A stretch of DNA of 60,957 bases, the filler included, from Dugesia japonica (lineage: Eukaryota), in assembly GCA_001938525.1 (NCBI GenBank). It is 6 parts of 6 records of this genome, joined end to end, with 100 filler letters (N's around TTAATTAATTAA, not from the genome) between each part and the next. Parts side by side here need not be neighbours in the genome. Positions count along the whole stretch, not along the records: positions 1 to 14,238 come from MQRL01595460.1; positions 14,339 to 22,956 come from MQRL01551656.1; positions 23,057 to 33,094 come from MQRL01597800.1; positions 33,195 to 42,156 come from MQRL01534884.1; 2 more parts are not named here. One strand, given 5' to 3'. A program made the translations under genes and the position numbers. Each line of letters opens with the position of its first letter. Positions within the stretch are counted from its first letter, which is position 1. Shown in pieces: positions 3,561 through 40,787 of the stretch. Below the pieces are notes generated by a model. It was given only the letters and a program-made list of their open reading frames with translations. It had not been told where the DNA came from and ran no database searches.

Positions 3561-3664
3561 GTCTTCGTCAGGAATTGACTTTTTGACTAAAAAATCTCGA
3601 ATTATTATCCAATTACAATAAAAACACCAAAATATTTGATCAAAGCTTTTATATTAAATGAATT
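3561..3664. repeat. Degenerate copy of the hammerhead-containing short repeat, inverted arrangement
   Basis: 3561-3578 reverse complement is TCAATTCCTGACGAAGAC (stem I plus CUGANGA). The following plus-strand tail TTTGATCAAAGCTTTTATATTAAATGAATT matches 17715-17745 and 40755-40785. Confidence 0.55.
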
Positions 3665-3760
3665 ATATATATATATATATATATATATAATTATTTAAAA
3701 AGTTAGTTTAGGTTATTTTTAAAATATTGCTACATTTATTTTTTGACTTTTACAATTTAG

Positions 3761-4338
3761 AATAAACTCAGTTTGGAATTATGTCAGCGTTAGGAGTAAA
3801 CAATGTAAAAGAACATCGAAAACTATGAAATTTATTGTGTAAGCGCAAACTTTTAATTAATACAATATATTTTCAATATAGAATAGATGCTTTAGAACTT
3901 TTCGAGAGATATTTGAATGATGAAAATAATAACTGGGAGTATTGGATAAAATTGTTAGTTAATATGGTATAATAATTAATACAATATTCATAAATATATT
4001 AGAAAAACAAAAATGTTATTAGTAAATAGTATCAGTGATAATGAACTGCATAAGTTGTTTGATAAATGGTAAAAATTCATTAAATCATTAATCGACAATA
4101 AATCGTATTTTTTAGTGATAAAAATAAACGAATACTCTCCGTGAAAAGCAAAAACGAAATCCTTAATTTCCAACTATTAAAAAGACCTCAAACAGTTGGA
4201 CAAGCTATTGAAATGGCTTCATCAAAAACTGGAGTAGCAAAAAATAAATTACTTTGTATCAAAAAATATAATAATTGCCAGCCAAAGGATGATGACCTGT
4301 TTGACGAAAGTGATTTAATTGAATTTATATATGAGTAA
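3761..4338 (+). CDS. Unknown multi-exon host gene (exons 3761-3838, 3882-3953, 4003-4068, 4116-4338)
   Basis: Three GT-AG introns of 43, 49 and 47 bp, all phase 2, join into one open frame: ...MKFIVIDALELFERYLNDENNNWEYWIKLKTKMLLVNSISDNELHKLFDKCDKNKRILSVKSKNEILNFQLLKRPQTVGQAIEMASSKTGV...EFIYE*. Start uncertain (ATG at 3825 or an upstream exon). Confidence 0.65.
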
Positions 4339-5074
4339 TTTTTTTATCTTTGGATAATGATTTTATTAAAAATTAGTGATTTAACAACTAAAGGAAAGTT
4401 TGCTCTAGTACTATTNNNNNNNNNNNNNNNNNNNNNNNNNNNNNNNNNNNNNNNNNNNNNNNNNNNNNNNNNNNNNNNNNNNNNNNNNNNNNNNNNNNNN
4501 NNNNNNNNNNNNNNNNNNNNNNNNNNNNNNNNNNNNNNNNNNNNNNNNNNNNNNNNNNNNNNNAAATCTTAATACTAACCTTTCTGAGATTAGTAATCCA
4601 AGTATTCATATCACTTTTATTTATAAACTATAACAAACAAATTTAAAAATTCATATTTAAAAAGGGAAAAACTAAATATTTTGATTAAAAAAAATACACT
4701 AAATTAAACANNNNNNNNNNNNNNNNNNNNNNNNNNNNNNNNNNNNNNNNNNNNNNNNNNNNNNNNNNNNNNAAATTATTTTCTTGATACAATTTTAAAT
4801 ACAGGGCTATTCCAAAATATAAATTTTTTTATTACAAATATAAATTTATTTATCAAAAATTTAAATTTATTTGTTACAAAAATAAATTTATTTAAAAATT
4901 TAAATTTAATTATTACAAATATAATCTATAATCTATATATTATAATTGTAATCTATTTGTATTATTTTTTATTACATAAACTTGTGTTTATAAGCTTGAC
5001 GAAAGATTTACCGTAAGATTGGCAGTAAATTTTTAATTTGAGATATGCCAACCCATTATATAGGATTTTAAAAA

Positions 5075-5730
5075 ATGATGGCAAAAGAAAAAAAGAAAAG
5101 GACTATAATCACAAAGGAGATAGTATCACTGATTCAAAATCAGATTCAAGCTGGAAGATCAAACAAAGAAATTGCAGAATAATTGAACATTTCGATTGAT
5201 ACTTGGAAATCGATTAACAGCAGGTGAGGATGAATCCACCATTATTAAGACAAAAGGTAGGAAATCTACCGAAAAACAAATAACAGCACCATTAATTTCC
5301 ATTATTTCGCATAATAATGCAATCACCCAAAAAGGTTTGATTGAAGAATTGGCTTAATCTAATATTCAATTATCACAAGCTTCAATATCCAAAATTGTGG
5401 CCAAAGCAGAAATTAGTCTGAAAAGACTTGTTAAAATCCCTGAGTCTCCAAATTCACCCCATGTTATTACTTTAAGGCAACAGAATGCACAAGAGATTCA
5501 GCATTTCTCTACGACGCAACTGCTAAATTTGGAAGAGACCGGTTTCAATCTTCATGACACGCAAAATTACAGGGTATTCTCTGAAAAATACCAAAACATA
5601 TGTCACAGTATCTGCAAGTGCAGGAAAAATATCAGTCTGATAGCATCAGTATCAGTCAATGGTATAATCGGACATGAAATCATTGATGGGGCTTATAATG
5701 GAGATACTTTCCTTAAATTCATATCACACA
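5075..5730 (+). pseudogene. IS630/Tc1-type DDE transposase fragment, 3' truncated
   Basis: HTH-like N-terminus (MMAKEKKKRTIITKE...SNKEIAE), then LEETGFN (DE motif), NISLIASVSVNGIIGHEIIDGAYNGDTFLKFI. Cut off by a Gypsy fragment. Confidence 0.75.
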
Positions 5731-6477: not shown

Positions 6478-6959
6478 ATAATTTATCCAGGTCTAAATCA
6501 CTCATCAAATCATTAACATCAGAATTCAAATTCATTACAACGATTTATTAATATAAAAAAACTATCACATCATTAGTTGCTGAAACAAATAAATTTAAAA
6601 ATTCATGTTCAAAATGGAAAATATCAAATGTTTAATTTTATATTTTATTATATTTAAATAATATTTTGATTTTTAAAAATACACTAAAATAGATATATTC
6701 TATTCATTTAATTTTATATTTTATTCCATTTAAAATATATTTTGATTAAAAAAAATACACTAAATTAAACATTTTTATTCATTTAATTTTTTATTTTAAA
6801 AATCCTAAAACTTTTTTTTAAATATTGTTATTGAAAGAAATATTACTAATGTTATTAGAGTGATTTGTGATCTTTAATGTTAAATACTTTTTTGAAGAAT
6901 TTTGCTATATCTGAATTCAGTGTATTATTTTATAAATTATAATAATGCAATTTTTGTAG

Positions 6960-7947
6960 TTCTGGGAACATTAAAGTTATAAATGTTATCAATGACGGAG
7001 CATTCGGCATTATACTTTTATGTAAAGATAAATTAACTAAAAATCAATTTGCTTTAAAAAAACCAAAAACTTCAGTGGATAACCTGTATAGAGATATAAG
7101 TATACAATGTTTAATTAAACACTCTAATATTCTTCCTCTCTATTTTCAACTAATCAATTTCGAAAATCAAATTTGCATTGCAATGAAATATTATTCAAAT
7201 GTAATTCTGAATTTTTCTAAATCGATATTTGCTAACCATTATAATAGGGCTCTTTATTATCATTAATAAATAACAAGAGAAAATTCTCAGAATATGAATT
7301 ATCCAAAATATTTTATCAGATCTTATTACAAATCCAAGAAATACATAATAATAATATCATTCACAGAGATATCAAAAGTTGGTGTTTTTATTTTTTGAAA
7401 AGTTTTTTTAATATTATTCTAAGGTGATAATATTGTTTTTGATGAGAATTTCAATGCAAAAGTAATTGATTTTGGAATGGCAAAATACATTAGTGATTGC
7501 AATGATAAGCAATTGAAAGAAAAGCTAAAGGTTTATAAAGCAGGAACGTGGTATTATATGGCTCCAGAAATTATGAATTCAGAATTCTATTCACAGAAAA
7601 TCGATATATGGTCATTGGGAGTTACTTTAATTGAAGCTATCACAGGTAAAATTATTAGAATATTTAAGAAATTTATTGGATATATCACTACAGACGGTAA
7701 ACTTTATAAAGGTATGAATCCTATGCAAATTGTTGTAAAAGTAGCAAAAACCAAAAAAGTTGATTTTCAACCTGCTGAACCGATGTCTGTTGAATTATCA
7801 ATTTTTATCGATTCGTGTTTAAATTCAGATCCAGAGAAAAGATTTAATTCAACTCAATTAATAGAAACAGATTTTATTCAAAATTATTTGAAAACAACCA
7901 CTGATAATACACAATCAATTAATCTTATCAACAAGAAAATTTTCTAA
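6960..7947 (+). CDS. Ser/Thr protein kinase, STE20/PAK-like (exons 6960-7200, 7248-7377, 7424-7645, 7694-7947; 5' exon not located)
   Basis: Introns of 47, 46 and 48 bp give an open frame containing NDGAFG, FALKK, HRDIKSDN, DFG, GTWYYMAPE, DIWSLG and DPEKR. Confidence 0.88.
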
Positions 7948-8125
7948 TAATATTCATCGAGAGATTTTGTATTTTATTTGGAGAAATAAATTATTTAATA
8001 ACCTAATAACTTGGAAAATACATCGTTATTCATTGATTTATTTCCTGAGTATAAGAAAATTTATTTTAATAAATAAAAATATACAGAATTAGTATAACTA
8101 AATAATAGATTCTGTGATTAATATA

Positions 8126-9325: not shown

Positions 9326-9389
9326 ACAACAATTAGAAGAAAATTTCAAATCAAAGTTGAGAATGATTGTAAACCGCCTATTGTTTATT

Positions 9390-10784: not shown

Positions 10785-13700
10785 ATGTCAAGCGCGAATA
10801 TTCATTTTAGAAGAACGGAAGGCCAGAGATAATACTTTGGCACTTTAGCACTTTAACTTAAATAAAAAACTATATATTAAGAACCAACAACGCAGGACTT
10901 TATTTTAGTCGCCAATATTCTAATAAAAAGAGAAAGAGGAAAAAGTGGTCCTTATAAAGTTTTTGATGTTTCTAAGTTCAAGAAAAGGGTCTTCTTTAAA
11001 GTTTATGAAAAATTTACAAGATCAATATTTGTATAAATTTTATTTTAGATTCTAAAAAATTTCGATACCAAATTTTCATTTAGAGAAATGGATGGCCATT
11101 GATAACACTTTACCTTTTGAAGAACATCAGTTTAGAGACTATTTATTTAGTGAATTAATAGTAAATGATTTTAATCGCGTTACCCATCTTAGAGCGCATT
11201 ATTATCGCCGATATAGAGGCGTTGTTCATACATATCCGATTTCAACTTATTTAATGACGGAACAAATCCTTAAAAATTGTTTAGAATTCATATTAGATGA
11301 CATTACAAATAATAATCCTAATTATACAATAAAGATAACAGCATTTCGAACTATGATTAGACTAAATCCAAATAGTTATTTCACACAGGAACAAGAGAAA
11401 CTATAGTAAATGAATTCTTTGAAAAATTAAATCACATTTTACAATCAGCAGAAGAAATAGATATTGATGCGATAAAATTTGAATTTCTATTTATACCTTT
11501 ACCAAACGGTACAGGAAGAAATTACCGTATTCATGGCGCTTCTAAATCAACTAATCAAATATTACAAAACGTTGCTGCGAATTCAGTTAATATGATTAAT
11601 AATACGGATACTATATGTTTATCTAGAGCAATAATAGTTGCTTTAACTTATAATAACTTTACTAATGAAAATTATTTTGATTTTGATGCAAGAGATAATA
11701 GAAGAAAATATTTTAGACGCGGTGGCCCAATTCAAACAGAATATGCTAATAATTTTCATATACAGGCAAGAGTTCCTATAAATCAAAGTGGTAGCAATAT
11801 TAATGATTTAAAAGTAATTCGAATTATTTTTAAATATAAGAATAATAGTTTATACTTGTAATAATAATGAATCAATCATATATAGAGGAAATGATTTATT
11901 NGAGAAACAAACATTTATATATCTAGAGAATAATCATTTCAACGCTATTGCTAAAATATTCGCATTCTTGCGGTCAAATAAATATTGTCATCATTGCTTA
12001 ATAGGTTTCCAAAATCAACATACATGCCCCATGGTATTATTGTTGTCAAGAAAGAAAATTGTAAAATGCGATGATTGTGGTAAAGAATATTCGAAACAAT
12101 ATTCACACAGTTGTGGCAAAAAGAATTGCCCTATATGTCATGAATTTTATACACCATCTTTCAATAATCACAAGTTTTATATTAAAAATAATGGCGGCAA
12201 ATTTAAAATTAGCAGTTCTTATATTTTCTTTGATTTTGAAGGAACGCAAGTAAATAGAGGATATCATGAGATAAACTATGCAATTGCATATGATTCATTA
12301 AGAAAAGTATTTTATAAATTTCAAATATAGTTACTATATTTAAAATAATTAGTGAAACATCTAACGAGGAAACGAAAGAAGAAATGAATTGGAAATTAGA
12401 CGAGCTAAATGTTAATAATATAATGGATATATGCGTAGCGATAAACCAAATAATTATAAACGATTCGAAATCTTTAATAGATACTTTCTGCAAATTCTTT
12501 ATTAGCTTGAATTTTAAAGATTATACCTTTATAGCGCATTATTCTAAAGGGTACTACAATCAACCAATATTAGATTGGCTAATTAAAAATAACTTACCTT
12601 TAGAAGAAATAAGTAGAGGAAATAAAATTATACATATTCGGGTAAAACATTTTAATATTAGATTTATTGGCTCCTTATGTTTTACTTTATGCCCTTTAAA
12701 AGCATTTCCCGAGACATTCGGTTTTAAAGGAATAAAAGGAGAATTCCCTCATTTAGCCAATACAACAGGAAATCAGAATTATATCGGCGTTTTTCCCGCT
12801 TTGTATTATTATGTTTATGATATTATGAGTAATACGATAAAGGAAAAAGAATCCGATCAATTAACTATAAAACAAAAATTAAAAGCTTGGCATGATGAGA
12901 GAATAAATAACAATGAAATATTTAATTTTCAAAATAAATTATTTTATTATTGCCTAACAGATGTAATGATATTAACTAAAGGATGTTTACTATACAAAGA
13001 TGTTTTTATGAATATAAAGATGCCTAATGGTAATTTATTGAATCTAGACCCATTTTAATATATTACTACCAAAACGTTTATGTCTACAACAAATAATAAT
13101 ACAATAGGGATTCCAAGACTATCTGACTTTGATGGCGTTTTTCTTCCAAATCTTTACATTGGCTCGAATACTTAAGCTATATCAATAAAATCAATATACA
13201 ACACGCCAAAAGAGGAGGAAAAAAGGCAATAAGTAACTATAAATTAGATGAATATTATTATGACTCGATAAAACAAATTCATTACGTTTATGAATTTAAT
13301 GGATGTTACTTTCATGGATGTTTAAAATGTTATTCGAAAGAAGAAATATGTAAGAAAGAAAGTAAATCAATGGAATATTTAAATAATAGAACTCAAACTA
13401 AAAAGAATAATATTATTGAATATTTTAAGGATAGACGAGAAAAAGTCGAATATATTACTTTGTGGGAATGTGAATATCAAAGATATTTATTTGAGAATCC
13501 AAATTTTTAAAACTTTAAACCTGAAGCATCTTTAAATAAATTAAAACCTAAAGATGCTTTTTATGGAGGAAGAACTGAACCATTTAAATTATATTATAAA
13601 GCAGCTAATAATCAAAAGATTAGATATGTTGATGTAGTTTCATTATACCCGACTGTTAATAAATATGACGAATATCCGATAGATCATCCCCAAATATTAT

Positions 13701-14238
13701 TTAATGCAATTCCTGAAGAATATATAAACCTAAATAATCTATTAGTTAGAATTAATGAAAATGACCAACCATATTTTGGCTAAATTAAATGCAAAATGCA
13801 GCCCCCTAGAAATTTATATTTGCCTGTATTACCTTTTAAACCAGAAACAATAAATGCTCATAAATTATTATTCGGATTGCGTAATACCTGCATGAATAAA
13901 ATAAATAGCAAATGCCCACATCATAAATTAAATACAACGTGCACATTTAAAGCGCAAGCTTTACATAATGATAATACTTGTGGACAATATATGAAAAATA
14001 AAGATGAATATGCATATAAGACAAAACAATGCACATTATTTTTTAATTTTAGAAACGCGCCATGTTTTCATAATGATGAAGAAAGATGTATAACAGGAAC
14101 TTGGTCAACAATTGAAGTAAATAAAGCTTTAGACAAAGGATACAAATTATTACATATATATGAATTATATCATTTCTCTAAAACAATAAAGACTATGTAA
14201 ATGTATTTATGAAATATAAATCAGAAGCAGAATGTAAA
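10785..14238 (+). pseudogene. Protein-primed DNA polymerase B with OTU-like N-terminal domain and VSR-like nuclease insertion
   Basis: INNTDTICLSRAI...NNHF (OTU-like Cys/His), YIFFDFEG (ExoI), IAHYSKGY, KGEFPH, YCLTDV, YEFNGCYFHGC...LWECE (VSR-like), FYGGRTE, YVDVVSLYP, GTWSTIEV. Start approximate. Confidence 0.92.
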
Positions 14239-14338: not shown

Positions 14339-15760
14339 TTGAGATATTAGTTTGTTATTTTTCAAGTCAAATTGTATTTGCACAATAGGAATTTATACAT
14401 TCATATATATTTCCTGCAAATATTACTAAGTCCCTAAGTAATTAAATTAAAATTTATAATTAAAATATAAACCAATTTTATTAACATTTATTAAATTTCC
14501 ATTAATTTCCTTAATTTATAAATTTTACAGAATTTAGCAAGGATATAGAAAGCCAGTAAATAGAGTAAACAAGTGGATAGAGTAATCAAACAGGCACAGA
14601 AAATCGATCTGATACAGTAAAACCCGCGAGTTTCAGTAAATCAATAGAAAGAGTAAGCCTTTGTGACACAGTAAGCCTGTATATAAAGTCAACGGATACA
14701 ATAAAACCCATGTGTTTCAATGAAGCTTATAATACACAGTAAAGCCAATGTATTTCAATAAAGTCAATGGTTACAGTAAACCAATGGANNNNNNNNNNNN
14801 NNNNNNNNNNNNNNNNNNNNNNNNNNNNNNNNNNNNNNGATAACATTTTGAATTAAAATTGTAACCATCTATGTGTAAATTGAATCAAGCTATGAGTAAA
14901 TTGTAACCACTTTTGCGTAAATTACGATTAACTATGTACAAATTGTGACCCTCTGTGTAAATTGTCATCATCTATTGTACATTGAGATATTAGTTTGTTA
15001 TTTTTCAAGTCAAATTGTATTTGCACAATAGGAATTTATACATTCATATATATTTACTGCAAATATTACTAAGTCCCTAAGTAATTAAATTAAAATGTAT
15101 AATTAAAATATAGACCAATTTTATTAACATTTATTAAATTTCCATTAATTTTCTTAATTTATAAATTTTACAGAGTTAAGCAAGGATATAGAAAGCCAGT
15201 AAATAGAGTAAACAAGTGGATAGAGTAAGCAAACAGGCACAGAAAATCGATCTGATACAGTAAAACCCGCTAGTTTCAGTAAATCAATAGAAAGAGTAAG
15301 CCTATGTGACACAGTAAGCCCATATATAAAGTCAACGGATACAATAAAACCCATGTATTTCAATGAAGCTTATAATACACAGTAAAGCCAATGTATTTCA
15401 ATAAAGTCAATGGTTACAGTAAACCAATGGATAGAGTAAACCAATGTGACACAGTAAAGCCCATGTGTTTCAATAATGCTAATGTGACAAAGTAAAAGTC
15501 TTGTATTTCAGTAAACCAGTGTGACACTGTAAAGCCCACATTCTACAGTAAAGCCAATGAACATAGTAAACCAATGTGTTTCAATAAAACCATTGTAACA
15601 CAGTAAAGTTCACGTGCTACGGAAAAACCAATGAGATATAGTAAACCAACTTGAAATAGTAAGCCTATGTGATACAGTAAACAAAAAGGTTTAGTAAGCA
15701 AATGAATACAGTAAGTTAGTAGATATAGTAAAGTAGGGGACATTGTAAACCAATGAACAC
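14339..15760. repeat. Degenerate minisatellite array plus a ~450-bp duplication
   Basis: Many ACAGTAAA(G)CC(A/C)ATG units at 14550-14788 and 15190-15760. ~21-bp TGTGTAAATTGTAACC-like units at 14855-14980. 14339-14788 recurs almost identically at 14982-15432. Confidence 0.8.
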
Positions 15761-17005
15761 CAATTAACACCACACATAGTTAGTATTTTGTCATAGTATA
15801 TGCTCAAATTAGTCAATTCAAGTAAATTATTTCATTTATTACAATAATTTAATTTAATTTTAGTCTATTAATCTAATCTATCCTAATTATGTTTAGAAAA
15901 ACATGTACTATAAAGAAAAATTATTATTATTATTATTATTATTAGTAAGTCTTGTAATTTAAATTTGTTTTTATTTTGTAAATTTTTACCATAGCAATAT
16001 TTTAATAGTTTTGATTTTTTATCAATGTTATATTATTATTTTCAGTTTTTTCAGTTTTTTAATGTAAATAGTTTGTAAAAATTTTAACGCTTATTTTTAA
16101 AAGTAAATCAAAATTTATATCATAAAAACATTAAAATTTGTCATTTACTGTAAAAATCATGAATTTAAAATAAAATGTAAAATTTTGAAATTTAATGAAA
16201 ATGAATTAAAATTAACACATGAAATAAAATTATTNNAATAAAGCATTTTTATACAGCAAACCTTATATACACAATGTTCAGTTTTTTATTCTAAGTTTAA
16301 TGGTCTAAAAATATTTTAAAACTTATTATTATTTTAATGATAATTATAATTTATAATTAATTATATAATTATATATTATTTTGAGAACCATGAATATTTA
16401 TACAATAAACCTTGTGTGAAATATGTTAAGTTTTTTATTCTGAGTTTTAAAACACCAAATTTGTTTGACTATCCTAAGTATTTTCCAGAAAAGAGTTTTC
16501 TATCTTTCGAACTAAAAATATTTTTACGATAAACCATATACATAAAATGTTAATAATTTTAATCTGAATTGAATGCTATTGTTGAGATGCTTTGGGGATT
16601 GTTGCCAAAGCAAATAAGCAATTGCGTGAGTTTATGAGTTTTGTTAACGTAAATTAAACAATCCGAATTAATTATAATAAACTTATAAGACTCCCTTATA
16701 TGACCTTAATATCGTTATTATATATAAATTATATTCGTATATATATACTATATAGTCGAATTTTTAACTGAAATATAAAATTACTTTAAGCAGAATTCTT
16801 TATTAATGTATAACAATAACAAGTTACTATTTTGATCTCGCGAGTGTCGTTTCAGTAAAACTCGACTCGACTTGAGATTTTAAAAAATGGTGCTAAACTA
16901 AAATTTGTACAAGTATTTATATCCAATTCGTTGATGCATGTGCATCCTTATAAAAATTACAAATAAATAAAAATTACGCATATTCACATAGTAAATTCAA
17001 ATATA

Positions 17006-17103: not shown

Positions 17104-17648
17104 TCAAAATTTAAATCAATCATTACAGTAATATAAAGTTCAATTATTAACGAACAACACATGATAAATATTAAAGTTCATTAAATATTGATAATTCCAA
17201 TAATATAATAATAAAGCTTCGAATATTAAAATTCGTCAACAAATTGTCAATAATAAAATAATTTTTTTCAATTTAAATTGTCGATTCATAATTTCAATTA
17301 AAGTTATTAACGAATTTGATTTGAGCTGCTCCTTTGATTGATTGGACTGCTTCTGATTGTGCTGCTTTCTCTGTGTATGTATTGTTTGTTATGTTGCGTG
17401 TGTGCATTTTTTCAATTCCCAACACTATTATTTTCAGTGCAATACAATAAGTATTGACTGAGTAATTTTTAAAACAATATCAACTGTGCCAGTGCTGACA
17501 TCCCTTTCTGAGAGAACCAAGCATATTCATATAGCAAACACTATATAAAAAATGTTCAGTTTTTAATTCGTTGTTAAACAATACTAAATTTATTTGATTT
17601 TCATTAGTATTTCTAAAGTGCGGTTATGATAACAGGGAATTTTTTTGT

Positions 17649-17685
17649 CAATTTCTGAAGAAGACCAAGTCGAAATTACGAATTG
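17649..17685 (+). ncRNA. Minimal type I hammerhead ribozyme-like motif with a degenerate cleavage triplet
   Basis: CAATTT-CTGAAGA-A-GAC(CAA)GTC-GAAA-TTAC-GAATTG: stem I, core CUGANGA, 3-bp stem II and GAAA are all present. Confidence 0.7.
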
Positions 17686-17999
17686 TCATCAAATATCAAT
17701 AGAAAAATAAAAATTTTTGATCGAAGCTTTTATTTAAAATTAATTTTGTAAAACGATCAATGGTTATGTCCAACAATTATTAAATTAATATCAACTCTGA
17801 TGCCCTTTGTTTTATTTGTATAGATAACAAAGACATGTATTGCTAAAAGCTGAATAATCTAACATTAATTTTCATGGTATTTCGTTTGTTTTATATTATT
17901 GGACTATCTGTAAATAAATATACTTTAAATTATTTCAAATCAGTGTTGTCCAAATTGTGTGTCAAGTTTAATTTCAAAAAAATGCTAATTTCTTCCTAC

Positions 18000-23308: not shown

Positions 23309-23989
23309 ATGGAAGATGTTATATGTAAAATTGAACAAGTTATACCTAAAATTAAAAATGGAGAAAAGTTAAAAAAAGAATTAAAAAATTTAATAATATC
23401 ACTTGATAATTTAATTAGTTCTGAATCTGAAAGTGAACAAATATGCGCTACGCTGGACTCCGTACAATTTAATGAAGAAGAATATATAGAAATGAAACAT
23501 GATCAAGATGGAACTGATAATGAAATAGAATCAATTGTATCAGAATCTAAATCTGTACAATCTGAACAATCTGAATCTGAATCTGAATCTGAACAAACTG
23601 AAACTAATCAAAATCAAATTGTTAGATTTAACATTCAAGATACTTCATCAGATAATTTAGTGATTATTAATAACCCTGATAATTTAACATTATTAAAAAG
23701 AAATACATTTAAAGAATTACCAGATTTAGAAGAATTTGATCCACCTAAATTTAATATAAAAATTAATCCAAAATCAACACGAACTATTCAGATGGAAAAT
23801 GGACAAATTAAAGATGTAGAAAATAAACAAATAGTTATTGGACAAATGATATTACCATTACCAATAGGTAAAAATGAAAAAGATACAATAAGAAGAACAA
23901 TAAAAGATGGAAAAAAAATAAGATCAAAATATTATCCAACAGATAATGAAGATGATGTTAAAATGGCAATAAATAAACCAACTATGTAA
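23309..23989 (+). CDS. Polinton hypothetical protein with acidic/Ser-rich centre, probably 3' truncated
   Basis: 226-aa ORF with an ATG start. It ends where the homology of the convergent ATPase breaks off. Confidence 0.6.
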   Translation: MEDVICKIEQVIPKIKNGEKLKKELKNLIISLDNLISSESESEQICATLDSVQFNEEEYIEMKHDQDGTDNEIESIVSESKSVQSEQSESESESEQTETNQNQIVRFNIQDTSSDNLVIINNPDNLTLLKRNTFKELPDLEEFDPPKFNIKINPKSTRTIQMENGQIKDVENKQIVIGQMILPLPIGKNEKDTIRRTIKDGKKIRSKYYPTDNEDDVKMAINKPTM

Positions 23990-24370
23990 TGTAACAATTA
24001 TACTTCTTGATTTTTTAGTAACTAAATTTTTATCTAGATAATAATTAATAACTTTATATGGTGAAGTATAAGTCTTAGGAATTATATTTTGTTTTTCAAA
24101 CATTAAAGTTATCTCTTCTTTAGTTAATCCATGTTCAAATCCTAAGTATAATAATTGAATTTCAAATTGTGAAATTGTTGTAGAGTAAATTATTAAATTG
24201 TCATAATCTAAAAATTNNNNNNNNAATAACATTTTCATTAATAATACATTTTTACCACAACCTGATGATCCAATCATTAAAAGTCTAAAATTATTAGGTA
24301 GTACTTTATTATTAAAATGTGTAATGTTATTATTCCAGATATACATGCTATTTTCTATATGTAACATATG
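23990..24370 (-). pseudogene. A32-like packaging ATPase, N-terminal half
   Basis: PNNFRLLMIGSSGCGKN (Walker A), highly similar to 53695-54080. The Walker B half is deleted. Confidence 0.85.
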
Positions 24371-24703
24371 GTAAATTATCATCATCATAATTATCATTTG
24401 AATAGTCTACATCTTTTGGCAAATTTATTAAAATAGGATAACCATCATTATCAAGTTCATATTTACATACTATTTATATTTTATATTTATTTATTATTTT
24501 ATTTATGCTAATTGGTAAATTATTATCTGATCTTGTTTTTAGTATACCAATTAATTTTCCTAAATTATTATAACATGTTAAATCAAAATGTTTAGTTTTA
24601 TTTATTACATAATCCCAATAATAAATTTTTTCTAAAATTTGTTTAGATGTTAAATCATCATTAATTATATCTTGTGCTATATCCATTTTATTAAGATTTA
24701 ATT

Positions 24704-24974
24704 TTAATCATACACTTTATATAAGGAGTTAATGTATTGTTCATTTTCTTTAACCATATTTTCATAAGAGGCATATGATAAATTTGGAATATAATTTTCT
24801 AATGATAACAAATTATTCTTTTCATCTATTAATCCTTCTAATTTCCATGTAAGAGAATTAATTTCTTCTTTTTTACCTTGATATTCACATTCTCCTATTT
24901 TTTGTTCTAATATTTCTATTTCTGTTTGAATTTCTAATATTTCTATTTCTATTTGATTTTTAAAATGAGACATT
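24704..24974 (-). CDS. Polinton hypothetical coiled-coil protein
   Basis: MSHFKNQIEIEILEIQTEIEILEQK..., directly downstream of the integrase (3' part of ORF 24704..25069). Confidence 0.45.
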
Positions 24975-25812
24975 TTATAAAGATGTTTTTTGTAACTCAT
25001 TACTATAAAATCTTCCCAATATTTTGTTGCCGTTAAGATTTGATATGCGAAATGTAATTGGTTGTTCATGATAAATTTGAGTAATTATATAAATTCTTTT
25101 AGACCATTTAAATGTATAACCTTTAGGAAATGTTTTACCAATTTTAGTTATTCTAACTCTATCACCAACATTAAATCTTAATTTCTCATTATAATCTTTA
25201 GGCATTACTATTTTAACTTTTTCTGGATTATTTGTTGCTTGTTGAGGTGTAATGTTAATTGTTGAATGTTGTGTGTTATTGTAATCATCAACAATTTGTT
25301 CTAATAACTTAAGTGTGATATCTTGATTTCCAACGGCAGTAAAATNNNNNNNNNNNNNNNNNNNNNNNNNNNNNNNNNNNNNNNNNNNNNNNNNNNNNNN
25401 NNNNNNNNNNNNNNNNNNNNNNNNNNNNNNNNNNNNNNNNNNNNNNNNNNNNNNNNNNNNNNNNNNNNNNNNNNNNNNNNNNNNNNNNNNNNNNNNNNNN
25501 NNNNNNNNNNNNNNNNNNNNNNNNNNNNNNNNNNNNNNNNNNNNNNNNNNNNNNNNNNNNNNNNNNNNNNNNNNNNNNNNNNNNNNNNNNNNNNNNNNNN
25601 NNNNNNNNNNNNNNNNNNNNNNNNNNNNNNNNNAATATTAAATCTGCAGACCAAATATCATCTTTTTCATGTACAACTATTTTTCTAAAATGTTTAGGTT
25701 TTCTATATTTTTTATGTAATTCTTTACTTAATATTTCTTTGTTGGTGAGTTCATCATCAGATTCATCTTTATTAATTGTAGTTTCTTTAAATAGATCTTT
25801 TTTTGTTCCCCC
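24975..25812 (-). pseudogene. Polinton integrase (core lies in the N gap)
   Basis: SKELHKKYRKPKHFRKIVV...DIWSADL, YNNTQHSTINITP, FNVGDRVRI...KGYTFKWS...GRFYSNEL. Confidence 0.88.
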
Positions 25813-26282
25813 TTAACCAATAACAATTTTACCTTTCATTGCTAATTTTACTAATACTCTTTGAAATTTTTCTGTTAATGTTGGATTTTCAATATTATTA
25901 AGATCATGTATTAAATTAACATCAGCAATATGACAATCGCGTATATTTTCAGAATTATACGCGATGTCATGTTTTAATGCAGATTCATCAACTCTATTAA
26001 TTGGTTCTTCAACAGGTTTAGGAATATTATTTTCATCTAATCTAATATCTAATCTTGTACCAGGTCCGGTGTAATTATGTTTAAATAAATGTCTTTCACC
26101 TGGATATTTTTCTGTTGTAATTGGTTTTAATAATGTTGATATAAATTTTGAATTTTGTAAGTCACCTCCAGATTTTTTCATTTTTTGTGCTACGCGATTA
26201 ATACATAAATCTAAATGTCTTGATTTATTTTTTTTAATATAATTTTACCACAATTGTCACATATAAAATTTTTAGAGGACAT
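25813..26282 (-). CDS. Parvovirus VP1u-like phospholipase A2 with an upstream C2HC zinc finger (1-nt frameshift)
   Basis: HNYTGPGT (Ca-binding loop), PINRVDESALKHDIAY (catalytic HD) and AD. The upstream frame reads MSSKNFICDNCGKIILK/KNKSRHLDLC. Confidence 0.85.
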
Positions 26283-26338
26283 TTTTAAGAGGTTACATTT
26301 ATCATTTAACATTTTACATTTTACATTTTACATTTATT

Positions 26339-27641
26339 TTATAAATCTTGACCTTTTACATTTTCAATCATAATAACTTTACTGTTAGCAAGTTTCATCT
26401 CAACATGTTTCTCTTCTAATATACACCAATGTATGATGGCTTTAAAATCATTATCTTTTGATATTTTAAGTGTAACACCTACATTGTTAACATTCATTTT
26501 ATTATCATGAGCAGATATATCAAAACAAAACATTGGATATAAATTACCAAAATCNNNNNNNNNNNNNNNNNNNNNNNNNNNNNNNNNNNNNNNNNNNNNN
26601 NNNNNNNNNNNNNNNNNNNNNNNNNNNNNNTGCCATTTCATTATTTTTCATATTAAATTTTAATTCATTAGCTGGATAATTAGTATTATTTAATTGTAAT
26701 TGTATACCTTTAATATAATTAGATTTTGATGTATCAACTGCGGGTGCGACAGCTTTAGTAATAATATCAACTTTCTGTATAAAGAGATTATCATTAGTTT
26801 CTAATGAAGAATTTGGAGATTTAAAACAAATAAAAATATATCTTGGTTGATAAGCTAAACTACCAATTTTTATTGAATAAAATGTTCCTATTTCCAAATT
26901 AGTTTTACCACATATCCTGTTTAAATATGAAACTTTAATTGATTTTTCCATTGATATTCTTTCCAACATTATTAATTCAGTTTTGGGTAATAATCTAAAT
27001 TCTGGAATATGAAATTCTAATGTTTCTAATATTAAATTAGCTTTTGAATCTTTTTCTCCATAAAATAATAATTTATTTTCAATTTCTCTGTTACATCAGA
27101 ATTCTATACTTGTATTATATAAAAGTCTATTATAATTTTGCATGAAACCACATAAATTTTTTAATGGAAAGTAACCTTCAAATTTATTAATTGTATAAAG
27201 TTTAGTTCTAGTTAAATAACCTTTATTTTTTACATCGCCATCATCAGTATCTGGTATCCAATCTGATAATTGGCCATTTTCCTTTTTATATGTGGCGGAT
27301 GTTAATATTAAATTTAACATTGTACTTATAACACCTGGATCGTTAATTGTTTCAATTTCAGATGAACCTAGAAATAATCTTAATGAATTAAATAAAATTG
27401 GGAAGAAATTATTTTCTAATGTTATTTTATCTTTTGTTGCATCTTTAATATTAATTTTAAAATATAAAAGTGAATTGCAAATGTCAAGTGGATTATTAGA
27501 TTGTAAAGATTGAAATACAATGTCGCCACTCGCATTTAATTTGCTTAATGTTCCTGCTGGTGGAGAAATTACCAATGTGTCATTTTTAATTGCAACATGT
27601 GAAAATTGAATGTTATTATTTAAATCTAACATTGTAATCAT
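26339..27641 (-). pseudogene. Polinton double-jelly-roll major capsid protein, frameshifted
   Basis: About 430 codons across three ORFs: LENNFFPILFNSLRLFLGSSEIETINDPGVISTML, PLKNLCGF, PRYIFICF, LNNTNYP, LYPMFCFDIS. Confidence 0.78.
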
Positions 27642-28098
27642 TTTATAGATGAAAAATTTAATGGTGTGTTTTTTTTATTATGTTACTATTATCTTACTAT
27701 TATTTTATGTTATGTTATCTTATGTTATNNNNNNNNNNNNNNNNNNNNNNNNNNATAAGATTTTTTCATATCCATTATTAAATTTTCATAATTAATAGGA
27801 ATTTTTTTATTTTCAACTCTATCCATAGGAATTTTTTGAATAACAGTGACTTTTTTATTTTGTTGGGGGGTCAGCTTAGCGCCTTCAAATCTATCAATTG
27901 CAGAAATAAAACTACCATTTGGATTTCTTTGTGTATTTCTAGATGGATTCCATGTTCTAACATTATATTCTATGTTCCATTTTGTTTAAATATTTTTTAA
28001 CAGTTTTCTCATTAATATTATAAATTTTACAAAAGTTATGTATAGAGTTATCTTTAAAATTATATTCATTTAACATTTTATAAAAAACTGTATCCATT

Positions 28099-29075: not shown

Positions 29076-30506
29076 TTAATTACGGTAGTATACCGGTTCT
29101 GGGTAAAAAGTAAATACCCTATTACTTATATATATATATATATCGTAATTAAATAATTAAATACTAACTAATATTTTATTTCAATGCGTCTTGACTCATT
29201 TAATTATGCTAAAATGTCACATGTAGATTTCAAAGTCTTCTTTACATTACATGTTACAATTATGTTTGTCATAGATAAATTATAATCTATTGGAAAACTA
29301 GGTTTCATGAATGCAATAAAGTTTAACATTTATTCTACTTCTGTGGTAGAAGATCTATTTTTTTCTGTTTATTAGCTTTCATCTAGATCTATATTAATTT
29401 AAATAATTTATTATCCTATACATTAACTCAAAAATAAATTCATGTAAATATATTGTTACATTGAGGCTAAATAATAATCTACTTATTAATTTCTTTCACT
29501 GTCTTGTCTTAGTCTTTTTAAGATATTTAATTTGATTTAGTTTAATTTAACTTAAGGTTTAATTTACTTGACTTTGATGGTTGTATTTATTTGTTAAGAA
29601 ATTTTTGTTGATCCTTGTAGACTCTCCTGAAACAGTTTTGGGACAGCTGAGGTGAATATTGTATTAAGATTTTGTCTTTCGAGTATATAGGTGGGAAATT
29701 AATTTTGTACTATTATCCACTGATTATTATGAAAATGTAATCGTAAATTAATTAAATCGTCTTACACCAAAATATATAAATATAATTAAAATGGATAACA
29801 ACCAAACCAAATTAGCAAAAAGAATTTATTACTTGTATTAGCAAGAAGAACGCAATCCTCATCAAATAATTATTTAAGACAAAGTTTCTATAAATTGAAA
29901 AACTGAGTTAGAAAAGTTTTAATATTCAAACAAATATACGCAATAATTATTTTAATTATTTTCTTGAAATATTTTAAATATCAAAAACTTTATAAATATT
30001 TTAATTGCGCATATTAATTTGAAATTAAGCAATTCGAATATCATTCTCACAACTTGTATCTTAAAAAGTCACGGATTGAAGTAAAAGATAAATTTAGTTG
30101 TCATAATTTAGAACAGTCAATGTAGTGATTCGTAGGAGAAGTTCTATAAAGTTCATAATACAATGCACAAAACTGGAGTTTAGAATTTTTGGAAATGGTT
30201 TGGTTTGGTTAGCCTTTTAATTCTAACTTTTTTTGATAATTTATTTTTGGTTTAAGCCAATTAATTTTTTGGTTTCTAATATTTCGTATTTTCTTTTATA
30301 ATTTTAAATATTAATTTCTGAGATTTTTATTTTGTATTTATCGCTCTTTTGCATATTAAAAATGTAATATCTAATAATTATGATACATACTTACACAAGC
30401 ATGTATTTACATAATGTACAAACATTATTCTTTAAAAGAAATTACAATTTTGATACTTGAAAATTATAAAATGAGCACCTTTATAATCAGAAAAACATTA
30501 CAGTAA

Positions 30507-30575
30507 ATTTCATTAGAATAAAGAAAAAGCTTCGATCAAATTTTGATCGAAGCTTTTTCTTTATTTTAATGAAAT
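30507..30575. repeat. 69-bp near-perfect palindrome derived from the hammerhead-repeat tail
   Basis: 34-nt arms ATTTCATTAGAATAAAGAAAAAGCTTCGATCAAA and its complement, with one mismatch and a 1-nt spacer. Confidence 0.9.
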
Positions 30576-31387
30576 CTCAAATGCAATCAATGGTCAAGTC
30601 CAACAATTATTCTCACAATAATTGTAATTATATTACAGTAAATATTCTATATATATTGAAAGTGTAAAATTATCTAAGACTGCTGTTTAAAGCAAACAAC
30701 TTGCTAAATTTAAATCCATTTTGGATATTTCTGATTTTAATATTTAAAATACAATAAAAGATTATTCAAACTATACTTTAACTGATGATGAATTTAATCT
30801 CTTAAAACTTGGTCCATCACATTGTATTAAATATAAATTAGATGGATTTTATTTTAAGGCTCAATTTGAATCGGTATATTCTAAATTTCTCCTTTCATAG
30901 AGTTCAAATAAACTGGATTTGCTGAATAATAAGTTTAATATTCAATCATCTGTTACTAAATTTATTAACAAGAATAAACCTTTTAATTTTAAGGATGAAA
31001 AAGTATTAAAGCAATCAAAATAGAAAGATTTGAGCATTTGAAAATTTAATAAAGTTAATGGACTAATTATCATGAACAAGAATGATTATAACAGTAAAAT
31101 GATGATGATATTGCAAACAAGTAAATGTGAACGATTAAACTTAAGAAAGAATAGCGTACCACTACCAATCAATATGAAAATCGATTATTAAAAATTCTAA
31201 ATAAATTTTAAAAAAAGAGATCATATAAATAGTTTATGTGACTATATGTTATGCTATGGAAGTCAGTCTGCTAAATTTTATGGTCTACCAAAAATACACA
31301 AACCTGATATCCCTGTAAGACCGGTTTTATCAATGATAAACACAGCGCAATACAAAGTTGCTAAAGTACTTAACAAAATGCTGAAAC

Positions 31388-31747
31388 CATAGTTGTACAA
31401 CATGAGGCCCGTAAACATTTTTTTGGCAGGCGAGATTCATCACACTTTTTCAAAATGTTTATTTCGATATATATTTTCAATAATATAATATTTTTTATAT
31501 TTAAATTTTAGTGTTATATATTTTTTTACAATGTGCNNNNNNNNNNNNNNNNNNNNNNNNNNNNNNNNNNNNNNNNNNNNNNNNNNNNNNNNNNNNNNNN
31601 NNNNNNNNNNNNNNNNNNNNNNNNNNNNNNNNNNNNNNNNNNNNNNNNNNNNNNNNNNNNNNNNNNNNNNNNNNNNNNNNNNNNNNNNNNNNNNNNNNNN
31701 NNNNNNNNNNNNNNNNNNNNNNNNNNNNNNNNNNNNNNNNNNNNNNN
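31388..31747 (+). mobile_element. Short hAT-like insertion inside the Penelope RT
   Basis: Starts CATAGTTGTACAACATGAGGCCCG. Flanked by 8-bp GCTGAAAC/GCTTAAAC, and removing it restores NKMLKPLIC. Right end hidden in Ns. Confidence 0.65.
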
Positions 31748-32843
31748 GCTTAAACCATTAATATGCAATGATAAATAATGTAAAGATACTTTTGGATTTG
31801 TAAATTGCTTTAAAAAACTACTTACCTCAAATAAGGAAATTATGGTTTATTTTAATAAAGTTAGTCTGTTCACAAACATTCTTATAAATTAGATCATCGA
31901 TACCTGTGTTGATCTCTGGCGAATCAATACACGAATTTATACTATAAATTTGATGAAATAGCTATCAGGAAATTGTTGGCATTTTTAATAATGATTGGTT
32001 CTCTCAGAAAGATCGTGTTGCAATGGGTTCTGAGTTGGTACGAACATTAGCATCCTTATATTCGTCTAAAATTGAATCACGAATTACTAACTTTTCTGGT
32101 AATCACCCGATAGAATACAAAAGATACGTATATGATATCTTCCTTATTTTTAAAGATCAAGAGAATATACTACCTGTCTCGATTATATGAACAGTCTTCA
32201 TCAAAATATAACATTTACTATAGAAGTTGAAAAAAACGATAAACCATCATTCTTAGATATTCTTGTTTGTTAACATGGTCTTAGCTATAATACTGCAATA
32301 TATAAAAACCAACAGACACAAGACTATACACCACTTCTAAAGATTTTTGTAATGATCGATATAAAAATGGGTTAATAAAAGGTTTAGTTCATAGAGTGCG
32401 GGGTATGTTATCAAGTTTTGAGATTGCTGATGATGTCTTAGCAGATTAGATAGTAGTCTTTGAGCTGATGAATATTACCATAAACGAATTATAATAACAT
32501 ACGTAGTATTTTAAACAGACTGTGCTCAACATTAAATAATAACCAAGAAGTTATTAACAATAATCAAGAAAAATAACTATAAAACTACAATTCTCGAAAG
32601 GAGCTAAATCATTAAAATGTTCTCTCATGTAATATTTTGATGATAATAAAGCTAAAATAAGATTCGATGAGTTTACAGTTTTGAACAGCGGTTTTGATAA
32701 TTATTTTGAAAGTATTGTTTGTCATGCTTTAAGAATTTGGTGAAACTCAGATTTAAATTTATTTTAATCTTTTTTTATTGGATTGAGTACGTAACAGGTT
32801 TTATTAGTTAGTAGATAAACACTTTTCTTCTTATTTTACAACA

Positions 32844-32884
32844 GTAACCGATGATGGGCATAGTTTTTTTCGAAACATGTATTA
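32844..32884 (+). ncRNA. Degenerate minimal hammerhead ribozyme at the Penelope 3' end
   Basis: CCGATGA...GAAACATGTA: palindromic ACAUGU stem III and GUA cleavage triplet. Core U-to-C change and eroded stem II. Confidence 0.6.
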
Positions 32885-32928
32885 AAAATAAAAATTTCAA
32901 AAAATATATAGATTAATTTTATATTATA

Positions 32929-35795: not shown

Positions 35796-37100
35796 ATGGC
35801 GACCACGTTATCCACGAAAGATATTTTACAAATTCTTCCTCAGCGAAGAATATTTATCATAAATGATAATGTTGAAGAATATTTGAAGGAGCAATATTTT
35901 TCAATGATCCAGCTCGACAACAACCAACGAAATATTGTTATCAGAGCATATTTAGACAAAGAGTCAAGATNNNNNNNNNNNNNNNNNNNNNNNNAAGATT
36001 ATGAAAAAAGAATGCGAAATGCATTTTTAAAAAGCCCAGATTTAGCCGAGGATCTAATCAAATTGCTAAATTACAAAAGAAAAAACGATTCGGTGGATGT
36101 ATGCATTTTAAAAATTGAAAAAATGTTGAAAACGTTATGCGACATAAATTAACCAGCACTAAATTGATCGCATTTTTCTGAAGCATTGTCTTGACAATGA
36201 AACACAGAAGGAAGAAATTCAAAGATATGAAATGACTGAAGATTTANNNNNNNNNNNNNNNNNNNNNNNNNNNNNNNNNNNNNNNNNNNNNNNNNNAAAA
36301 TATTTAAAGAAGATGAACAAATTGAAACTGAAAACGTACAGAAAGGTCCAACTCCATGCAAATATATCAATAATATTTTGCATCGCATTGATAAAATCAA
36401 TGCACAAATCAATGCGATAGAAAACAATCATATNCTGGAGTTTTAAAATATCAACAAAATGCAAATTATAATCAGCCCTGGAAATACAGCAATGATCAAA
36501 GACAAATTCCAGAAATCGAACAATTAAAGAAATATTCATTAAAGAAATTCAACATCCAATGCGTGAACAAACAAGACAAATATATCCAGAAAGTAGAGAA
36601 AAAAGAAAATATGTCCAATTTAATAAAAATGAAGAATCTAGGCAATTTTATGGATGCCATGAATTTAGACACTTACGCCGTGATTGCCAAAATATTCGAT
36701 GTTCTGTTTGTAATCGAAGAGGACATCTGAGTTATAAATGTTACCATCGAGAAGACACCGAAAAAAGAATGAATATTAGAAACCAATTCAAAGATTACAA
36801 CAAAGGCTCCAGTCAACGTGGAAATGATAGGAGCCATAAATTACATTTAAGATATGATATTAATGATATGTGGACTAGTATGTTTGAGTGTGATGATGAT
36901 TGTTTGAATAATTTTAATAATAGTATTGGTGTGATTAAAAATGACTCAATAATTGAATGTATATTTAAAAATATGAATGATGAAAATAGATTGACTGATA
37001 TATGCATGCTTGAATTTTTGAATGTTGTTAATTATTGTAACATTGATGGTAGACCTTTTAATAATATTAAACTAAATGGAAGTTATTTCAATGCATTATG
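35796..37100 (+). pseudogene. Gypsy gag with two CCHC zinc knuckles
   Basis: (C>F)YGCHEFRHLRRDC and CSVCNRRGHLSYKC. Stops and frameshifts present. Confidence 0.8.
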
Positions 37101-38913
37101 ATACTGGGACGAAAAAAAAGCGTAATGAGTAAAACTTTAGCTAAGGAAATTAAAAATATTAAATTTAATAACAAAAATGTTAACGACAAGCAAGTTTTAT
37201 GCGCTAATGGCAGTGCCCTAAATATTAAAGATAAGGTAGATATAAAAATTGAATTTAATGGCAAAAAGTGTACTAACAAAATCTTTATTGCTGAAGAGAT
37301 TTATCCCCTTATAATTATGGGAATAGATACTTTAAATTCTCTACAAATCAAATTAATAGAAATAGATAATATAAATCCCATCGTTTTAAATTTACAAGCT
37401 AAGTTTTCAACAAATAATATAAGTATGAATAGTAGTGAGCAATTAATTAAAAAATTAAAATTAAATTACGATAATAGTATTCATGATATTATTGTCAGAT
37501 ATATTGAAATTTTTATGAGCAATAAATGGAATATTGGTAAAACAGAAATTTTAAAACATAAAATGGAAACCGATTGCTAACCGATTTTAATGAAAGCTAG
37601 AAGGTAGTCGATGCACTACGTAGAAAAAATAGTAGAAATTATAAATAATTTAGAAGAAAATAGTATTATAAAATAATGTGAATCCCCATGGAACTCTCCG
37701 ATTGTATGCGTTAAAAAAAGAATCAAATGAAATAAGAATGTGCTTAGATTTCAGATTTTTAAATAAATACACTGTTAGACCTGCTTTTCTAATTCCAAAT
37801 ATTGAGGAGATGCTTGATTCGTTATATGGGGCGCAATATACTTTTCATCCATAGACTTAGAAATGCATACTATCAGGTGGAGTTGGAAGAAGATAGTAAG
37901 TTAAAGACGGCATTTTTGACTAAGATGGGACTATATTGTTTTAACCAAATGCCATTTGGTATTGCTGCTGCTCCATCGACATTCCAAAAATTGATGTCAA
38001 TTATTATTAGAGACGTGATGTGGAAAGAGGCACTGGTTTATCTCGATGATATATTAGTATTTTCAAAAAATCTAAATGAACATAAAGAAAGGATTGAAAA
38101 AATATTTTTANGAATTAAGAAATCGGGGCTTAAAATAAATCTAGATAAATGCAATTTTTTAGTATCCGAATTAAAATTCTTATGTCATATTATAAATAAG
38201 GAAGGGAGTAAAACTGATAATTCAGGGATAGAAGCGATAAACAATTTTGGAAAACCTCGATGCATGAAACATCTTCGCAGCTTTTTAGGTCTAACAAATT
38301 TTTATCGCAAATTTATAAAAGTTTATTCCAAAATTGTCACACCATTGGAAAAATTAATTGAGAATAAAGAGGTAAAAATTAGTTTGGACTGAAAAATGTA
38401 AAGAAGCGTTTAAAAGTCTAAAAGAAAGTCTCACAAAAACACCAATAAATAGATATCAGAATTTTCAGAAAACATTTATTTTAGATACAGATGCAAGTTT
38501 TGATTCAATAGACGCAGTTTTATCACAACATGATGAATATGGAAAAAAAGTTTAAAATGTAACGCAGCAGAAATTGTTTTTGGCAAAAAGATAAACAAAG
38601 AAACGCTTATGCATAAAATCTTAACTTGCGAAAATTCATTAGAATATAATAAACTGTTGAATGATGTTCGGTTTGAAAGAAAGGAAGTTATTCATAATGC
38701 TAATATGATTACTGATTACAATAATGATAAAAGAATTCATAAACATTTCAAAATTGGTGATAATGTGCTGGTAAAACATGACATAAGAGATAAACAGGAT
38801 AATAGATATGGAAGACCTTATAAAATTATAAATGAAATACACAATAATAGCTTTAAATTGAGAAATTCTGAAGGTAAAAGATAGTTTAAAATATAGAATG
38901 GCTAAAGCTATTT
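37040..38913 (+). pseudogene. Gypsy pol (protease, RT, partial RNase H; integrase core deleted)
   Basis: AL.DTG, SPWNSP, AYYQV, MPFG, YLDD, LRSFLGLTNFY, FILDTDAS, then a jump near 38550 to the integrase tail (RYGRPYKI). Confidence 0.9.
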
Positions 38914-39434
38914 AAAACGAGGGGAATGCGAGATGATTACAAAATCATCTCTCAGTGTTTAAATTAATTATGTATGATTGTATGTGTGTATGTAAAGTAT
39001 GTTGATTTATTTGTTTTAGTCCCGTATTATTATATCATAGATTTCCCCAAAACTACTGGCTTCTAAAACAATATATAGAAGCCGATTATGTCATATTGTC
39101 ATAAAATATATTCTAGAAACTCCTGTTGGATTTCTTAATAACATTAGGTAAATCTTCAATTGGTAATTCATTCTACAAATCACAGTTAATATTTTTAGAT
39201 ATAATTTATTTCACTATAACAACACATGCTTAGTGAGATTATTATAATTGAAATAGCACTGATTAGAAATTAAAATTGAATTTGATCACTTACTTTTTAT
39301 TAAATAATAATTACTTCCTTATATCCCCCTTTTTAAGAAACTTATAAGATTTTCCACATTTCTTTCCAATCGCTGTACATTTTCTCTTTAAACTGCATAC
39401 CGCCTTTCATGCATTTTCTCAATTATTCGATAAG

Positions 39435-40125
39435 AGTAGGGACTTAGTTGCGCGCTACAAACCCTCCTCCCCCTCCTCCTAGGGGACAAAAAATTATTGG
39501 TGTAGAATTTTATTGGTCTAAAGTTTAGATGTTTTTCTCACCGTGTATGTATGTAGAATTTGAATCAAGCGATGAGTCATTTATTGCCTCTCGTTGTAAG
39601 TGTTTGAGTGTGTCACACAGATGTTTAATTGTTTTTAAAATTAATTGAAATTATTGGTTTTTAGTTTAAATTAACCGATTCTTTACGATATTTTTGTTTA
39701 AACTAACTGATTTTTACAAAGTTTTGTTAAAATTGAGAGATGTTTAAAAAGGTTTTGTTTAAGTTGACAGAAATTTAATTTTTAATTTGAATTAAATAAT
39801 TTTATGACATTTTTGTTTAAATTAAGTGAACTTATGATGTTATTATGTTACCAATCATGCGACGCTTAATTTTACACTGATCAAGAATATAATAGTTAAA
39901 AATCTAAAAGTTTTATACGCAACAAATAAAATTGACAATATAAAATGAACAAGTGCATTTATGTAATTTTTTTTCAGGCAATATTAACATTAAGATATTT
40001 TCTCCCGGACAATATTATTATTAAGATTTTTTCTCCCAGGGCAATATTAATATTTGGATTTTTTCTCCACGAGCAATATTAATATTAAAGTTAGTTGCTC
40101 CCCGGGCAATATTAAGTTTCAAATA
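39435..40125 (+). mobile_element. Putative Polinton-type terminus with subterminal tandem repeats
   Basis: Begins AGTAGGGACTTAGTTGCGCGCTAC plus a C-rich tract, like 60847 and the reverse complement of 51571. ~32-bp repeats at 39630-39830 and 39975-40115. Confidence 0.45.
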
Positions 40126-40602
40126 GTACGGAATAAAATAATTAAGATAAATAAAATGAAATAAATATAATAAAAAAATAATAATAAATGAAAACAATAA
40201 AATAAATAAATGAAATGAAATAATTAAATGAAATAAAAAAATTCATTTAATTAACAAAATAATATAAATAAAATAAAATAAATAAAAAAATATAATAAAT
40301 AAATTATTTAAATAAAATAAATAAATTAACAAAAATAAATAAAAAGAAAATTAAATAAATAAATTGAATAAGATAAATAAAAAAATAAAATATAATAAAA
40401 AATAATGAAAATAAAATAATTCATTTAAAATAAAAGGAAATAAAAGCTTCGATCAAAATTTTTGTTTTTTTTTATTGATATTTGATAACAATTCAATTAA
40501 TATTTTTAATATTTTAATAATATTTTTAATATTTAAATTGTTATCAAATATCAACAAAAAAATAAAATAAATAAATAAATAAAATCAGAATTATTTATCC
40601 GT

Positions 40603-40787
40603 ATTCATTTAAAATAAAAGCTTCCATTAAAATTTGTATTTTTTAGATTTTAAAAATAATTCAATNTTTCGACTTTGTCTTCTTCGACTTTCAATTCCTG
40701 AAGAAGACAAAGTCAAAATATTGAATTATTTTCAAAATCCAAAAAAATACAAATTTTGATCGAAGCTTTTATTTTAAATGAATTCTG
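40603..40787. ncRNA. Inverted pair of minimal hammerhead ribozyme repeats
   Basis: Plus 40691-40727: TCAATTC-CTGAAGA-A-GAC(AAA)GTC-aAAA-TATT-GAATT. Minus 40658-40685: GAAGA-A-GAC(AAA)GTC-GAAA-nATT-GAATT. Arms about 85 bp. A further tail copy lies at 40438-40498. Confidence 0.75.

Follow-up and report, generated by a model that had tools for sequence, protein, structure and literature searches.

A dispersed repeat family of Dugesia japonica with a minimal hammerhead consensus and Penelope-like insertion features

Loci and arms of the repeat family

The studied window, a 60,957-nt stretch of Dugesia japonica DNA, has a G+C content of ~26% and is rich in transposon debris. Self-comparison and alignment within the window revealed a repeat family of nine arms at five loci (A–E), which lie on four scaffolds joined in the window by an artificial spacer (Table 1). 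Head-to-head inverted pairs are formed at four of the five loci (A, C, D, and E, the last carrying a second, short arm), and locus B is single. The arms of one locus are 92–97% identical, compared with 74–91% between loci (overlaps longer than 16 nt); for instance, the two arms of locus D share 77 of 84 letters.

The 16-nt tail of the repeat has six matches with at most one mismatch in the window vs. none in 100 shuffles, and a seventh, more damaged copy is located in the left arm of locus D. For the 5' half of the hammerhead, there are three window matches with at most two mismatches vs. none in 100 shuffles. A full minimal-hammerhead descriptor gave no perfect match in the window and two matches with one core mismatch (17655 and 40698), whereas resampled windows (n = 12) gave no matches under the same descriptor. 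An intact hammerhead is found in none of the nine arms, each being damaged or partial: locus B lacks U16.1, the right arm of locus D lacks G12, locus C (30507–30631) contains the 3' part of the unit and no hammerhead, and other arms lack parts of the core. Hammerhead residues (G5, G12, U16.1, 2.1, etc.) are numbered here according to the hammerhead numbering scheme. The original prediction, which had proposed related units at five positions on four contigs, a shared tail, frequent inverted pairing, and a lesion in each copy, is borne out, with the additions that locus C carries no hammerhead and that the right arm of locus E was absent from the original list.

Table 1. Positions of the family arms, the target-site duplication, and the adjacent decayed element in the window
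Feature	Position	Strand	Remarks
Locus A, left arm: A-run, stem I 5' strand, CUGACGA	3558..3584	-	Stops within loop II
Locus A, right arm: damaged hammerhead 3' half, linker, tail	3592..3664	+	Ends at (TA)n run
Locus B, full-length minimal hammerhead	17647..17685	+	Lesion 17677-17678 removes U16.1
Locus B, A-rich linker, shared tail, first arm of 3' hairpin	17686..17781	+	Copy end 17781
Locus C, target-site duplication, left 12-bp copy	30497..30508	+	
Locus C, left arm: tail only, short 3' end	30507..30540	-	33/34 letters identical to right arm
Locus C, right arm: tail and 56-nt one-sided extension	30541..30631	+	Terminal 9-bp hairpin 30603-30625
Locus C, target-site duplication, right 12-bp copy	30632..30643	+	
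Decayed Penelope-like element, outside the repeat family	30660..32890	+	RT pieces 30982-32437; endonuclease-like end by eye
Locus E, left arm: linker, tail	40418..40498	-	Begins ~3 nt or less from cleavage site
Locus E, right arm: short piece, stem III through linker	40528..40570	+	28/30 letters identical to left arm
Locus D, left arm	40603..40685	-	Begins at G5; lacks C3, U4, and stem I 5' strand
Locus D, right arm: hammerhead with G12->A, linker, tail	40691..40787	+	Runs into N gap

Another hammerhead-like stretch (3395–3420) failed the minimal-hammerhead descriptor and was rejected. A search of Rfam returned no hammerhead among eight weak matches at E-values up to 5. The Rfam models are not known to cover such minimal hammerheads well. 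Exact pattern scans of metagenome contigs, prokaryote genomes, and viral contigs gave no match, and therefore no outside relatives were available for covariation analysis.

Loci E and D are bordered by long tracts of A-rich, low-complexity sequence (40100–40420 and 40911–41030) that hold fragments resembling the short 3' end of the family; the tracts may be T-rich extensions of arms or further decayed copies. A different abundant repeat is located just upstream of locus B (17540–17621, with relatives at 16241–16334 and 16390–16483), its summed contig depth reaching 32,000 in the sequencing run X1. Elsewhere in the window, broken Polinton-like segments occur on three scaffolds (11000–14200, 23900–27700, and 51500–59000), where Pfam models detect a protein-primed DNA polymerase B, double-jelly-roll capsid-like pieces, an integrase, an A32-like ATPase, and a PLA2-like domain. 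A decayed LTR-retrotransposon-like region (36496–38884, plus strand) contains an RT match (Pfam RVT_1, E 3e-24) and by eye is of the Gypsy type. Protein kinase pieces at 6946–7947 (plus strand; Pfam Pkinase, E 3e-25) have distant relatives only, with ~28–37% identity over most of the length. Finally, the region 14339–15750 contains a 643-bp direct duplication, 97% alike and built of short internal repeats.

The consensus hammerhead and its variation

The hammerhead of locus B includes a 6-bp stem I, CUGANGA at 17655, one extra base after A9, a 3-bp stem II with a 3-nt loop, GAAA, and a predicted cleavage site after 17679. Hammerhead variants with a helix II this small may already be among those of Lunse et al. 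Four of the 24 listed runs (two contig sets and two RNA runs) were mapped to locus B, yielding 5,962 and 5,820 contigs and 20 and 878 RNA reads, respectively; a second mapping, to the hammerhead core alone, yielded 78 and 91 contigs and 8 and 15 RNA reads. The read majority at 17677 and 17678 (98 and 99% of depth in X1) restores GAAA-UA-UC. Restored in this way from reads of the same species, the family consensus is, as judged by sequence, a minimal type I hammerhead that is complete and has AUAU as its stem III. CUGANGA, GAAA, and UH in the type I order are present in the majority of window arms and reads and in no single window arm. The consensus also has an extra base between positions 9 and 10.1, a G10.1-C11.1 pair, and a palindromic 15.2–16.2 segment. 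Both the core reconstructed earlier, which equals the majority of window copies and the read majority, and its assignment to minimal type I hammerheads with palindromic AUAU stem III, like those of Penelope-like elements (PLEs), are therefore upheld, the latter by its fit to the published PLE consensus.

Other listed core variants are confined to loop II, N7, the extra base that follows A9, and position 2.1, where C-G or U-G keeps the pair; only in RNA reads does the variant of the extra base exceed 1%. At these sites the hammerhead is free to vary or pairing is kept; the chance of this, calculated post hoc, is 0.003 (3 sites falling in 6 free of 37), a value that depends on the 80% filter and the variant-listing rules. 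The original prediction had counted an absence of covariation in stems I and II against itself; in the read tables, which carry no haplotypes, the change at 2.1 is one-sided, and no two-sided change, as strict covariation would require, was seen. The last pair of stem I is broken in three of the six arms covering position 1.6. Stems I and II constitute the lowest-energy fold of the majority core, whereas shuffled versions of single copies fold just as well as the copies themselves (z 0.0 and 0.3), and the AUAU stem III duplex is predicted to be unstable (+1.6 kcal/mol).

The same sequence could be read as coding DNA, for instance from the end of a GIY-YIG domain, the hammerhead look being a by-product of codons, and one frame of locus B indeed spans the motif and the tail without an indel. 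At 17666, however, a common variant (9% of depth in X1 and 30% in X5) introduces a stop into that frame. The 45-residue reading has no match among 1.84 billion proteins and matches no PLE protein, both being weak tests for so short a query, and a coding origin leaves unexplained the paired stems and the fit to the published consensus. We consider this reading very improbable; the candidate GIY-YIG coding sequence was rejected on the stop variant and the empty protein searches.

Abundance, copy ends, and the insertion at locus C

The family is very abundant, as had been proposed: ~5,900 contigs per DNA run align to 321 bases of locus B. Near 17765, the summed contig depth in X1 reaches 1.7 million, compared with ~4,000 at the core; this depth is not to be read as a copy number, and long pieces listed among the mapped contigs have a depth of 6–16. 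Depth on locus B rises 18-fold between 17667 and 17686, as a pile-up of copy starts at the cleavage site might produce, but the rise starts upstream of that site. The locus density is one per 11.6 kb in the window, which is biased to short scaffolds. We estimate that the number of copies in the genome would lie between thousands and tens of thousands, the majority being without the ribozyme.

Among the 878 reads of RNA run X22, 98% run on into unlike sequence. Reads of both orientations are frequent, and a 99% likeness to locus B is reached by just 19 of them. This pattern fits family copies embedded in other transcripts. No RNA data set was listed as containing the region of locus C, which does not bear on its expression. 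In four RNA runs, whose reads seldom cover the core, no pile-up of read starts or ends was listed; the mapped libraries are oligo-dT or cDNA, a type that cannot show small or circular RNA. Read-through RNA of loci C and D is predicted to form long hairpins (-49 and -88 kcal/mol), which, according to the folding model, would bury the ribozyme rather than form a dimer. Inverted pairs cannot supply a cleaving dimer, since their arms lie on opposite strands and the read-through RNA is one long hairpin.

Copies that retain CUGA share a 5' boundary, all three such arms in the window beginning within ~6 nt of stem I. Letters clipped from the reads upstream of this point agree poorly (0.62–0.72), the clip position being forced by the flank of locus B itself. 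Unrelated flanks with a shared A-run are expected to agree at 0.55–0.63, depending on group size (for 10 records, 0.55 with an upper bound of 0.59), and homologous flanks should agree far better than the observed values. Because the agreement is slightly above that of unrelated flanks with an A-run, a minority of copies may have upstream DNA in common; inverted arms may also explain the excess. There are several 3' ends, with four arms ending ~67 nt past the cleavage site, locus B at 102 nt, and the right arm of locus C at ~120 nt. The last of these ends in a 9-bp hairpin (z -5.4; 0 of 200 shuffles fold as well), and reads continue into the same hairpin beyond the end of locus B.

Locus C is flanked by 12-bp direct repeats, and no 12-letter match was found in up to 3000 random flank pairs; the extension belongs to the right arm only. 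A clear target duplication was not found at the other four loci (A, B, D, and E), so that one of five loci shows it overall. An ORF linked upstream of the family units was found at none of the five loci, nor was a pseudo-LTR (pLTR) joined there to an RT-GIY-YIG ORF, the read flanks being limited to 30 letters.

The decayed PLE beside locus C has RT pieces matching proteins of the PLE type, with a best E of 8e-16 within the window. Near 32848–32885, in the segment 32845–32890 (plus strand), it carries a decayed hammerhead-like motif of its own, different in sequence and located ~100–130 nt past the end of the decayed ORF, which is the usual position of a 3' pLTR. Given the target duplication of locus C and the different 3' hammerhead, this PLE is an insertion target and not a demonstrated parent of the family; on the same two grounds, we rejected the reading in which locus C is the 5' pLTR belonging to that RT. 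A review describes a tendency of PLEs to insert within or next to earlier copies. A mobilizing PLE for the family was not found within the window.

Comparison with Penelope-like elements and retrozymes

The family resembles the minimal hammerheads of metazoan PLE pseudo-LTRs, as these are described in the 2014 survey (Cervera and de la Pena, 2014; PMC4209133), in being type I with CUGANGA and an extra base, in the G10.1-C11.1 pair, GAAA-NN-UH, palindromic stem III, and AU-rich flanks, and in its many dispersed single copies and close opposite-strand pairs. The same AUAU stem III occurs in 5 of the 56 rows of Fig. S3 (PMC4209133). In contrast, helix II of 3 bp with a 3-nt loop is shorter than in all 56 rows, the next being 3 bp with a 5-nt loop (PMC4209133), and no linked ORF was found for the repeat. 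The Schmidtea row of that figure represents a different family (PMC4209133).

The arrangement of the arms has parallels in insertions of EN+ PLEs, as these are characterized in the reports on Adineta vaga Pen2a (PMC3846280) and PAc (PMC11167929) and in the scheme of PMC8557442, namely head-to-head arms of which one is shorter, an optional extension at one end, a short target duplication, AT-rich or (TA)n targets, and a 3' stem-loop. The repeat differs from them in lacking an ORF between its arms, in its extension (35–56 vs. 30–40 nt), and in its duplication (12 vs. 8–10 bp). For PAc, the description of the mechanism points to internal priming at the stem-loop, which explains the tails, to uncleaved RNA as the main substrate, and to a ribozyme that needs the protein (PMC11167929). 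By analogy, a similar mechanism may apply to the present repeat.

Short non-coding repeats with type I hammerheads and many monomers are likewise known as animal non-LTR retrozymes, which their authors propose to be non-autonomous PLE derivatives (PMC7229834; bioRxiv 10.64898/2026.07.22.740005). The family could be a retrozyme in the strict sense, with tandem hammerhead repeats giving small circular RNAs and with scattered monomers in the window; animal retrozymes do have type I hammerheads, a pLTR origin, and many monomers. These elements are, however, defined by head-to-tail tandems and circular RNAs, and a tandem is found at none of the five loci in the window. Moreover, the 2020 paper ties retrozymes to canonical hammerheads and minimal ones to PLEs, and the ends, which are ragged, and the head-to-head orientation of the arms are consistent with target-primed insertion. 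This assignment is accordingly improbable, though less so than a coding origin.

We give a mild preference to the interpretation that the ~160-nt repeat, starting with a hammerhead and ending in a hairpin, is a non-autonomous derivative of a Penelope pseudo-LTR copied in trans by a PLE RT and endonuclease. A PLE enzyme made elsewhere would nick AT-rich DNA, and reverse transcription would be primed at any of several positions close to the unit's 3' end (~67, 102, and 120 nt past the cleavage site). An early stop of copying would leave most copies without the ribozyme, a second copying of the same template would produce the inverted arm, and copies with the whole ribozyme would derive from uncleaved RNA. 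The consensus ribozyme is predicted to be weak and might act with the help of a protein or by pairing of two molecules in the AUAU stem III. The higher arm identity within loci than between them is expected if both arms are copied from one template. Of the original prediction of a non-autonomous, Penelope-mobilized element, insertion of the PLE type is supported (inverted arms, one-sided extension, and one 12-bp duplication), mobilization by a PLE enzyme is likely, and non-autonomy is only favored.

The other serious possibility, to which we assign a smaller though substantial probability, is that an autonomous PLE left the units behind as stubs, in the form of either 3' pseudo-LTRs truncated at their 5' side or front-end copies of the parent RNA. 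Such front-end copies would arise by priming at the first of two internal start sites, and the fixed 5' end would be the transcription start of the parent. PLE minimal hammerheads are mostly single motifs ascribed to truncated PLEs (PMC4209133), the RT of PAc primes inside the ORF start (PMC11167929), and the pLTR and tail of Adineta elements include the first 12–22 codons (PMC3846280). At locus C, an ATG-led frame of ~21 codons is open through the extension, but this is weak evidence (chance 0.18). An autonomous parent should also leave many copies that extend upstream into shared sequence, whereas the clipped letters agree poorly, and the hammerhead of the adjacent PLE, which locus C interrupts, is a different one. 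Fixed 5' ends alone do not decide between the two origins, because front-end copying gives fixed ends too; nevertheless, the boundary at stem I shared by the copies favors a non-autonomous element over stubs of an autonomous parent.

A narrower version of the non-autonomous interpretation, which we regard as tentative and rather doubtful, is a SINE-like Penelope passenger, that is, a fixed ~160-nt unit to which no ORF is ever joined, whose helix II would be smaller than any in the 2014 survey, and whose hammerhead would still be under selection. If this is true, thousands of head-to-head insertions would record PLE priming of both strands from one RNA.

No description of the repeat was found in a search of the literature. 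The repeat is regarded here as a new family, the minimal hammerhead, the AUAU stem III, and the inverted arrangement having already been described for PLEs. The large size of the family, its several 3' ends, and its matched arms provide material for testing the origin of PLE tails and inverted ends, and the family could also be used to test the role of ribozyme cleavage in transposition, the very short helix II making it a simple test case for cleavage.
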